From NCBI GenBank assembly GCA_043803105.1, contig JAZDKJ010000008.1, forward strand, positions 96,001-160,000: DNA of 64,000 nt. The letters are read 5' to 3'. Every line of letters begins with the position of its first letter. The stretch's first letter is position 1. Source of the DNA: Candidatus Woesearchaeota archaeon. Lineage in GTDB: Archaea > Nanobdellota > Nanobdellia > Woesearchaeales > JAZDKJ01. Below are positions 55,656 to 56,481 of the stretch, piece by piece. A model generated the notes under the pieces. That model ran no database searches, was not told the DNA's origin, and worked only from the letters and a program-made list of their open reading frames with translations. Both the position numbers and the translations under genes were made by a program.

Positions 55656-56448
55656 GAATAAAATGTGCCAAGCAGTTAACAGAGCCAGTTGGTGAAAATC
55701 CAACCATGTAGCCAAAATGACAGGCGTTACCGCAAGGAAAGCGCTGAAGGGTCTGAGGCAAAGTCCAGCCCATATCCTGCAAGGGATGCAAAAGGCTAGG
55801 CAGATGACACCTATATCGGGTCGGTGGTAGGTGGAAATCACAAAAAAGCCTAATGCGGATGGATGAAACGGTTTTGTTAATGACCTTGGGAGATCCCACT
55901 GGACATGCTTGCATAAGCATTAAAAAGTGGGAAGTCAGCTTACTTCATAGTACCGAAAGGGAAGGAGGTAAACCTCAATGCTCGACGATAATTACGTGCT
56001 TGGGCTTGTTGATGGAGAAGGGTCCTTCAATGTGATGATAAGTCATAACAAAAGAAGGGCCAAGGTGGAATTGAAATTCTGCCTGAAACTTCGACATCAA
56101 GACAAAGAGGTGCTTGACGAGCTTCAAACCTTTTTTGGATGCGGCAAAGTGTACATCCAAAGAGACAAGAGAGCTAATCACTCTCTGTGTTACAGATTTG
56201 AAGTGCAAAACAAGAAAGAGATTGTCCAAAAGATTATCCCTTTTTTCGAAAAGCACCAACCAAAATTACCAAGCAGAAAACGAGACTTTGAGCTATTCAG
56301 GCAAATCACGGAAATCTCAACAAGAGAGCCTGTTGATTTGGGAAAGATTGAAGAGCTCAAGGGAAAATTGCATTGGGGGCTCGCCGTATACAGGAAAACT
56401 GTACGTGCGGTGGGAACGCCAAGTAACCCAATGGGTGAAAAAGGCAAT
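55656..56448 (+). mobile_element. group II-like intron in 16S (~1400/1401)
   Basis: Splits CACACACC|GCCCGTC; GTGCC at 55665; domain V-like CGCCGTATACAGGAAAACTGTACGTGCGGT; 3' end AAT. Confidence 0.82.
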
Positions 56449-56481
56449 GCCCGTCAAACCACTCGAGCAGGGTTTAGGTGA
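55978..56481 (+). CDS. single-motif LAGLIDADG homing endonuclease
   Basis: YVLGLVDGEGSF, FFGCGKV, IIPFFEKH...KRDFELF. Confidence 0.92.
   Translation: MLDDNYVLGLVDGEGSFNVMISHNKRRAKVELKFCLKLRHQDKEVLDELQTFFGCGKVYIQRDKRANHSLCYRFEVQNKKEIVQKIIPFFEKHQPKLPSRKRDFELFRQITEISTREPVDLGKIEELKGKLHWGLAVYRKTVRAVGTPSNPMGEKGNARQTTRAGFR

Follow-up and report, generated by a model that had tools for sequence, protein, structure and literature searches.

A group II-like intron carrying a LAGLIDADG endonuclease gene at the decoding site of an archaeal 16S rRNA gene

An interrupted decoding site

The stretch of DNA considered here, which we call the window, spans 64,000 nucleotides (nt) of the genome of Candidatus Woesearchaeota archaeon (assembly GCA_043803105.1, contig JAZDKJ010000008.1, positions 96,001-160,000, forward strand). 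It holds a ribosomal RNA operon in which Rfam models place an archaeal 16S gene from position 54105 onward and a 23S gene at 56874-60141. The match to the Rfam archaeal small subunit (SSU) model is interrupted after ...CACACC, and its 3' part restarts at GCCCGUCA. Read directly, a 5' exon ending in CACACC at 55655 and a 3' exon beginning with GCCCGUC at 56449 enclose a 793-nt insertion (55656-56448), exactly where a first-pass annotation of the sequence had seen the decoding-site sequence CACACC/GCCCGUC split; a G on either side leaves the boundary ambiguous by 1 nt. The insertion begins with GAAUAAAAU-GUGCC and ends with ...GGCAAU, and its only long open reading frame (ORF) on the + strand codes for a protein of the LAGLIDADG family. 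As we argue below, it is very probably a group II-derived ribozyme intron of small, IIC-like build that carries this LAGLIDADG gene within an archaeal 16S gene.

The insertion falls between what we take to be the equivalents of Escherichia coli C1400 and G1401, with the numbering derived from the 1392-1406 primer site. The host genome (1.56 Mb in 13 contigs, 96.5% complete) carries a single 16S gene and a single intron copy. Because the sole 16S gene is thus interrupted in the decoding centre, the intron needs to be removed exactly from the pre-16S rRNA.

A family of introns at one site

The element does not stand alone. Relatives of its endonuclease number 901 proteins at E values up to 0.001, the best 120 being 65-83% identical to it, and the few that bear an organism name are attributed to an 'archaeon', a 'Nanoarchaeota archaeon' or 'Candidatus Woesearchaeota archaeon'. 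Genome records provided four loci, belonging to two Nanoarchaeia, one Pacearchaeota and one metagenome-assembled genome (MAG) labelled Methanosarcinales, while metagenomes yielded 234 stretches confirmed by tblastn, the best 80 of which were used. Within the phylum of the window the gene was found in 3 of 401 sampled genomes, the window's own included, a count that is not a frequency, many such genomes being without assembled rRNA genes. Of the 87 loci retained for analysis, both exon flanks were present in 73; a contig end or the want of a flank motif removed 12, and two were reversed; once 10 duplicates had been dropped there were 63 unique introns of 776-1026 nt, the window intron included, and it is on this set that the comparisons made below are based.

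All 63 introns sit between CAC(A/U)CACC and GCCCGUC, in 16S genes with the archaeal flank UUGCAC, and the two genome loci of reverse orientation, once turned, show the intron at the same site. The hosts are archaeal: in each of the 20 relatives scanned, the top rRNA matches are to the archaeal SSU model and to the archaeal large subunit (LSU) model. The ribozyme part of the element is 72-96% identical among copies. When the divergence of hosts was set against that of introns over 630 pairs of 36 loci (r = 0.29), no pair was found to associate a near-identical intron with a distant host, and the sequences give no clear sign of recent transfer among these archaea.

A covarying fold in six domains

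In the alignment of the 63 sequences upstream of the ORF, RNAalifold predicted 63 base pairs, 46 of them with compensatory changes. We counted the pairing independently for 62 of these 63 pairs, distributed over 13 helices, taking as controls the same helices after one partner had been slid by 1-3 columns. The proportion of paired cells was 97.7%, as compared to 34.0-48.0% in the slid controls; changes on both sides affected 46 pairs (17-20 when slid) and 728 cells (54-87 when slid), and none of 500 shuffles reached the observed pairing values. The whole is organized as six helical domains around a central wheel, comprising domains I-III, the stem of domain IV, and domains V and VI (Table 1). 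Domain I is multi-branched, with two GNRA-capped hairpins and a terminal stem-loop that exposes ...GGGUC-GGUGG in its loop. In domain IV the two strands of the closing stem change in concert, AAUG/CAUU being replaced by AGUG/CACU, and they also covary in length: a 5' strand shorter by 1 nt goes with a 3' strand that has one G fewer.

Near the 3' end stands the hairpin with a CGC triad that the first-pass annotation had likened to a group II domain V, and the family bears this likeness out. Pairing over its 14 pairs reaches 98.7% and drops to 25-50% in slid controls, and the triad pairs as C-G, G.U and C-G in 61-62 of 62 distinct rows. The hairpin combines the traits of a group II domain V, that is, a length of about 31-34 nt, a triad with G.U, a 2-nt bulge, a GNRA-type loop (here of GAAA type) and a location close to the 3' end; we take the CGC triad to be the IIC form. 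Domain VI follows, with a basal helix of 2-4 bp that covaries (GCC/GGC, GCG/CGC, GUC/GAC, GAC/GUC, among others), a conserved internal loop of the AGUA/GAAA type and a variable distal hairpin. The terminal 'AY' that had been noted in the window intron is an AAU shared by the entire family.

Three copies depart from this anatomy. The copy in the MAG labelled Methanosarcinales (L003) no longer has the 3' half of domain V and retains little of domain VI, and L045 and L049 have a minimal domain VI from which the distal hairpin is missing. These may be decaying or streamlined copies.

The 5' end and the choice of the splice site

The nine extra nt noticed ahead of GUGCC (55665-55669) in the first reading of the window are present, and they are a property of the family: the linker is A-rich and conserved, and a 5'-terminal linker in every member is a trait of the LAGLIDADG-encoding rRNA group II introns with which the family is compared below. 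No pairing partner for it was found in the 63-intron alignment, where mutual information peaked at 0.38 bits and followed no Watson-Crick pattern. The motif that usually opens a group II intron lies 7-11 nt inside, as GUG in 60 of the introns and as GCG in the remaining 3.

Modelling of the pairing between the exon-binding site (EBS) of the intron and the intron-binding site (IBS) of the exon, a check proposed with the first-pass annotation, yields a candidate EBS1-IBS1 helix that puts the splice site upstream of the linker. Support for this helix is modest, as one may judge from the alignment: its four Watson-Crick pairs never vary, and the fifth pair varies in a compatible way, being A.G in 46 introns, U.G in 12 and U-A in 5 of 63. 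An A at this place in the EBS is limited to introns that follow an exon U, where it is found in 5 of 17 cases, as opposed to none of the 46 that follow an A.

Other pairings were considered and rejected on inspection. A possible EBS2, formed by the loop and flanks of the hairpin 55774-55787 and facing exon positions -12 to -7, was discarded because the hairpin varies in relatives and the exon does not; a hairpin between the exon GCACA and the UGUGC of the intron start is lost in the exon-U variants.

An endonuclease gene overprinted on the ribozyme

The ORF in domain IV had been described as crossing domains V and VI before it stops in the 3' exon, and this is what is seen, with a stop codon 33 nt into that exon. 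Its product matches Pfam LAGLIDADG_1 (PF00961) as a single domain over residues 8-110 (E 9.8e-18, 65.4 bits; cut-off 23.1). Relatives of known structure are mostly two-domain enzymes of the I-OnuI family, to each half of which the protein can be matched, and single-domain enzymes of 170 amino acids (aa) match too. In the motif GLVDGEG, the residues G13-E14-G15 are invariant over 31 of 31 aligned relatives, the acidic E14 being thus conserved, and the ORF is intact, at 140 aa or more, in 62 of the 63 introns (median 152). The gene is placed in domain IV, encodes a single LAGLIDADG motif and no reverse transcriptase. Nor is there a match to RVT_1 anywhere in the host genome, complete as it is to 96.5%, so that no intron-type reverse transcriptase would be available in trans.

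A protein with a single motif may work as a homodimer. A structure model of two copies passed with a score of 0.83, the best of three controls scoring 0.00; among proteins of known structure, the mark is attained by 20 of 30 that were solved as two copies of one chain and by 1 of 23 that were solved as lone chains. Agreement between runs extends to at least 86% of contacts, with a pLDDT of at least 85, and the modelled interface is made of residues 2-14, which is the LAGLIDADG helix. The model is to be understood as a likeness to solved homodimeric relatives and not as a proof of binding.

The coding sequence and the ribozyme are superimposed to a considerable extent. Bases of the ORF also form the 3' strand of domain IV and domains V and VI (56371-56448), and domain V reads in archaeal ORFs as ...LAVYGKTVRAVG.... 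The conserved C-terminal stretch of the protein, ...HWGLAVYGKTVRAVG..., is the translation of the 3' strand of domain IV and of domain V, and its conservation reflects the RNA. At the other end of the gene, the GGAGGU located 8 nt upstream of the AUG (region 55964-55980) belongs to domain III, of which it forms the 3' strand, and pairing within the stem of domain IV takes in the AUG. As both are held within RNA helices, folding of the ribozyme and start of translation should exclude each other. The purine stretch upstream of the AUG looks like a Shine-Dalgarno sequence in some relatives, not in all.

Table 1. Features of the 16S intron, in window coordinates. EBS1 and IBS1 are candidate pairing partners.
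Feature	Coordinates	Strand	Basis and remarks
Whole intron (G...AAU)	55656..56448	+	793 nt, single genomic copy; 63 unique homologues, 776-1026 nt, same site
IBS1 (candidate), last 5'-exon bases (A-CACC)	55651..55655	+	CACC pairs with GGUG of the EBS1 loop in 63/63
5'-terminal linker GAAUAAAAU, between splice site and GUG	55656..55664	+	In 63/63; 9 nt in 57/63, range 7-11
GUG and domain I	55665..55889	+	RNAalifold and pair counts, 63 sequences; sub-threshold RF02003 match 55686-55791
Domain I, helices I(i) and I(ii)	55668-72/55885-89; 55675-78/55878-81	+	RNAalifold and pair counts
Domain I, helix IA hairpin	55688-92/55700-04	+	RNAalifold and pair counts
Domain I, unnamed helices	55711-13/55757-59; 55719-21/55751-53	+	RNAalifold and pair counts
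Domain I, helix IC, GNRA loop	55723-28/55740-45	+	RNAalifold and pair counts
Domain I, helix ID	55763-70/55857-64	+	RNAalifold and pair counts
Domain I, GNRA hairpin	55774-78/55783-87	+	RNAalifold and pair counts
Domain I, ID3	55802-05/55837-40; 55808-13/55828-33	+	RNAalifold and pair counts
EBS1 (candidate; GGUGG), ID3 terminal loop	55823..55827	+	Adjoins almost invariant GGGUC (55818-55822)
Domain II (invariant base GAGAUCC.../...GGAAGUC, variable hairpin)	55890..55936	+	Helix 11: 4/5 pairs invariant, 1 compensatory
J2/3 (AGC), invariant	55937..55939	+	GAAGUCAGC unchanged in 63/63; within RF01998 match
Domain III (7-bp stem, AUAGUA/GAAG internal loop, short hairpin)	55940..55971	+	Helices 12 and 13: 7/9 pairs compensatory
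Domain IV	55973..56378	+	8-bp closing stem CCUCAAUG (55973-80) / CAUUGGGG (56371-78); ORF start codon inside stem
Single-motif LAGLIDADG homing endonuclease ORF (predicted)	55978..56481	+	167 aa; overlaps domain IV 3' strand, V, VI and 33 nt of 3' exon
Domain V	56382..56412	+	CGC triad 56382-84, 2-nt bulge AC 56403-04, loop GAAAA; RF00029 match 56379-56427
Domain VI	56418..56445	+	Basal helix GCC/GGC, internal loop AAGUA/GAAAAA, distal hairpin; unpaired A at -7
3' tail AAU (group II 'AY' end)	56446..56448	+	63/63 introns
3' exon start GCCCGUC (E. coli G1401...)	56449..56455	+	Direct reading and Rfam

Weighing the group II reading and its alternatives

The first-pass annotation saw a group II-like LAGLIDADG intron with a 5'-terminal insert in an archaeal 16S gene, and the covarying fold, domain V, the EBS1-IBS1 pairing and the archaeal hosts all support that view. 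The comparison with Rfam group II models, which it had also proposed, agrees with it in part. In the window, matches to RF02003, RF01998 and RF00029 are collinear and below threshold, the best scores being 27.6 bits for RF01998 (55900-55967, E 0.0087; threshold 35) and 22.5 bits for RF00029 (56379-56427, E 0.063; threshold 40). The model group-II-D1D4-1 is the top non-rRNA match over the region of domains II-III in the three introns scanned, with 27.6, 26.3 and 23.6 bits for a threshold of 35. What did not follow is a match at the curated threshold, and because no group II model of Rfam reaches it, 'group II-like' is the right wording. As for the class, the intron without its ORF measures about 400 nt, of which domains I-III take up about 310 nt; a short EBS1 and the CGC triad make it IIC-like, by analogy with general features of that class and with the description of the IIC family in PMC13190283.

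A number of observations weigh against a group II intron and must be placed in the balance. The gathering score of the Rfam group II models is reached by none of 21 sequences (the window and 20 relatives), and RF00029 does not appear among the matches at E up to 10 in either of the two relatives scanned. The 5' terminus is not GUGYG, the GUG being internal, and the would-be positions 4-5 of that motif are base-paired in helix I(i). The EBS1-IBS1 helix counts only 4-5 pairs; no conserved EBS2 was found in the family, nor were EBS3 or the remaining tertiary pairings located. In domain VI, as had been remarked from the window, there is no single bulged branch A at 7-8 nt from the 3' end; the A at -7 sits in an internal loop. 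The 16S target site is only weakly palindromic, with 5 of 11 half-site pairs, a figure that carries little information.

Finally, public RNA runs contain no spliced junction specific to the organism. The best of them, X1, holds 0.29 of the words, and X1, X2, X8 and X14 are represented almost only by contigs of about 60-140 nt that come from conserved 16S flanks of many organisms. Joints that skip 793-797 nt are present (for example 55655>56449 in X1, depth 150.8, 2 contigs, side 22); since short conserved 16S pieces of this kind could come from any organism, these joints are not specific. A single 222-nt contig of X1 (depth 2.9) lies on 55927-56147. Nothing in these runs demonstrates splicing or transcription.

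Several of these points can be put to the credit of a different explanation, in which the element is a decayed group II relic, removed by host nucleases or protein cofactors, possibly without ligation and hence with a fragmented 16S rRNA, or else dependent on its endonuclease as an obligatory maturase. Its 5' end and its domain VI are non-canonical, the genome search gave neither a reverse transcriptase nor a maturase, the Rfam scores stay below threshold and the public RNA runs lack an organism-specific junction. We nevertheless think it unlikely. The triad and bulge of domain V, J2/3 and the loop of domain III are invariant or covarying over 63 copies that have diverged to 72-96% identity, and such retention of the catalytic parts across diverged copies argues for selection on ribozyme function. 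A break between C1400 and G1401, in the decoding centre, is unlikely to be tolerated, and for related introns with a 5' linker, splicing is reported to occur ahead of GUGYG (PMC4424553).

In archaeal rRNA genes most introns belong to the bulge-helix-bulge (BHB) type (PMC6125680), cut by the tRNA splicing endonuclease and joined by an RNA ligase, and it would be natural to see here an ordinary intron of that sort carrying a LAGLIDADG gene, all the more so as the host encodes the splicing endonuclease (PF01974, 96.8 bits) and as three further short insertions in the same 16S gene are possibly BHB introns. The motif itself consists of two 3-nt bulges set apart by a 4-bp helix; its presence at the junctions with cleavage by EndA, together with the want of any group II model hit, had been named beforehand as what would refute a group II intron. 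It was not found there: in the window, no central helix within 7 nt of a junction exceeds 3 of 4 pairs, and a 4-bp central helix within 3 nt of the junctions is present in none of the 63 members, whereas the same scoring, as a positive control, gives a full motif in the third short insertion. With a splicing endonuclease gene and no BHB motif, the machinery is there and the substrate is not. A BHB intron would furthermore leave unexplained the covarying fold of 13 helices and domains V and VI, and we regard this explanation as very improbable. Scanning the entire 16S region for BHB motifs de novo returned 463 chance-level matches and proved useless, and scoring at known junctions was used in its place.

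Least probable of all is a group I intron, which might be thought of because group I introns with LAGLIDADG ORFs, an ORF type typical of them, occur in rRNA genes of Woesearchaeota and Pacearchaeota (PMC6125680) and because the 23S gene of the same operon contains a group I intron, when in fact none of the three introns scanned (window and two relatives) has an RF00028 match at E up to 10, neither of the registers allowed by the 1-nt ambiguity gives ends of the form U|...G|, and the covarying helices, a domain V hairpin among them, are not those of a P1-P9 core.

A proposed scheme for splicing and homing

If we return to a group II-derived ribozyme, the features described above suggest how it could operate. 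The 5' splice site would be set by an EBS1-IBS1 helix of 4-5 bp, in which GGUG(G) meets (A)CACC, and the cut would be made 9 nt upstream of the GUG that usually starts group II introns, with the A-rich linker looped out. The catalytic centre would be formed by domain V, with its CGC triad, its bulge and its GAAA-type loop, together with J2/3. A purine-rich internal loop stands in domain VI where a single bulged adenosine would be expected, and this, with the 5' linker, would on balance make hydrolysis a likelier first step than branching, a preference that we express with some reserve. Mobility would take place at the DNA level. The 167-aa LAGLIDADG protein, as a dimer, would cut intron-less 16S rDNA at the 1400 site, and repair of the cut would copy the intron into it, no reverse transcriptase being involved. 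Folding and translation would interfere with one another, owing to the start codon being inside the domain IV stem. The anatomy of the element, its conservation and covariation, the spread of the family among its hosts and the tie to the CPR elements are observed in the data; self-splicing and its chemistry, the activity of the endonuclease and homing are in this account what we infer from sequence and fold.

Similar elements in bacteria and organelles

Elements of this kind have a history outside the Archaea. Insertions at 16S position 1400 in bacteria of the Candidate Phyla Radiation (CPR) were reportedly first noted by Brown et al. in 2015, the rns-1396 family of the Thiotrichaceae is said to have been described by Salman et al. 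in 2012, and fungal mitochondrial LAGLIDADG group II introns with 5'-terminal insertions are said to have been the subject of work by Toor & Zimmerly in 2002 and by Li et al. in 2011.

The nearest counterparts come from CPR bacteria, in which Tsurumaki et al. (2024, PMC11270868) describe as 'group II intron-like' a set of 53 insertions, named '16IS9', located at 16S position 1400 and nowhere else; 39 of the 53 encode a LAGLIDADG protein, mostly a single-domain LAGLIDADG_1, and according to the same text none encodes a reverse transcriptase. The archaeal introns resemble them in their position in the rRNA, in the single-domain LAGLIDADG_1, in having no reverse transcriptase and in the DNA homing that is supposed in both cases. 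They differ in that their hosts are archaea, with the UUGCAC exon, and in the frame in which the ORF passes through domain V. The tie between the two is seen at the protein level. The nearest named non-archaeal relative of the endonuclease belongs to a member of the Patescibacteria (P0127, 44% identical), and of its 18 C-terminal residues, 14 agree with an archaeal domain V, linker and beginning of domain VI translated in another frame. P0127 and the relatives P0123, P0134 and P0149 share the ending ...RxVREIRxxGGN..., a translation of that RNA in a different reading frame. This suggests, as far as the protein and the translation of domain V can tell, that archaeal and CPR introns belong to the same RNA family.

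The rns-1396 introns of giant sulphur bacteria (Thiotrichaceae) are, as described in PMC13190283, 16S introns with a IIC backbone and a single-motif LAGLIDADG gene in domain IV; all members have a 5'-terminal linker and, in that description, no EBS2. The likeness is one of description, and there are differences, since their site lies 4 nt upstream (...UUGUACA|CACCGC), their EBS1 is another one and their hosts are bacteria (supplementary Table S4 of PMC13190283). The group II introns of fungal mitochondrial rRNA genes show the same syndrome: as presented in PMC4424553, they splice 1-33 nt upstream of GUGYG, have a LAGLIDADG ORF in place of the reverse transcriptase and an altered EBS1-IBS1 pairing, and have lost EBS2 and the branch-site motif. 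Unlike the archaeal introns they are organellar, of class IIB1, inserted at other sites and mostly equipped with double-motif endonucleases (PMC4424553).

Within the Archaea, BHB introns and the group I introns of DPANN archaea and others share the host genes and the LAGLIDADG cargo, and differ in RNA fold and presumed splicing chemistry (PMC6125680). The archaeal group II introns that encode a reverse transcriptase, known also in DPANN archaea, are of the same ribozyme class; they were found via their maturase or reverse transcriptase (10.1101/2024.12.10.627823), and the available text of that preprint makes no mention of LAGLIDADG or of rRNA. A 2026 survey of 753 LAGLIDADG group II introns places them in green algae, fungi and one bacterial family (PMC13190283). 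In the literature searched, the coverage of which excludes subscription papers, we found no report of a LAGLIDADG group II intron in an archaeal rRNA gene.

Other insertions in the operon

The same operon shows further irregularities. Comparison of the 16S gene with the Rfam archaeal SSU model brings out three other insertions, at about 54831-54983 (153 nt), 55102-55134 (33 nt) and 55299-55327 (about 28 nt). A full BHB motif is found only near the third, not precisely at the boundaries derived from the rRNA, and the three may be BHB mini-introns or expansion segments. The 23S gene contains, about 1930 nt from its start, a group I intron with no ORF (58808-59058; RF00028, 80.3 bits, E 1.8e-19), in the region where archaeal group I introns are recorded at LSU/1923 and 1931 (Nawrocki et al., 2018, PMC6125680). 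In the 16S-23S spacer a tRNA-Ala-like gene can be made out by eye at 56631-56790, interrupted in the D-loop, the anticodon loop and the T-loop; neither ARAGORN nor Rfam at its gathering score calls a tRNA in this interval. A plain tRNA lies downstream of the 16S gene in 14 of 20 related loci.

Meaning for archaeal introns and their hosts

At the least, the intron adds an archaeal representative to a kind of element known from CPR and giant sulphur bacteria, what is new being the domain of the host and not the mechanism. A more ambitious view, the odds of which seem to us evenly poised, would make it the archaeal branch of one lineage that homes to the 1400 site in CPR bacteria and in DPANN-type archaea. 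It would then be the first group II rRNA family and the first LAGLIDADG group II family in Archaea, free of reverse transcriptase and maturase and probably hydrolytic, with an ORF that was re-fused repeatedly after transfer across domains. If there is indeed one lineage, such repeated re-fusion of ORF and ribozyme would follow from the different frames in which domain V is read in archaea and in bacteria.

The introns usually taught for Archaea are those of the BHB type, together with a small number of group II retroelements and, from 2018 on, group I introns. A widespread LAGLIDADG group II-type 16S intron, with 63 unique copies and 901 related proteins, is absent from that list. A single rRNA operon, moreover, holds group II-type and group I introns, and possibly short BHB introns as well. 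There are practical consequences. The insertion lies within what we take to be the target of the universal 16S primers of the 1392/1406 type, and these archaea are therefore likely to be under-counted in amplicon surveys. A compact ribozyme of about 400 nt, associated with a small endonuclease that is modelled as a homodimer and has a target in 16S, could also be used to study how a 5' linker affects the choice of the splice site. For the organisms themselves, the tie to the CPR elements of position 1400 points to an exchange of homing introns between ultra-small organisms that occur together, for which the universally conserved sequence of the decoding site would be a common landing pad.

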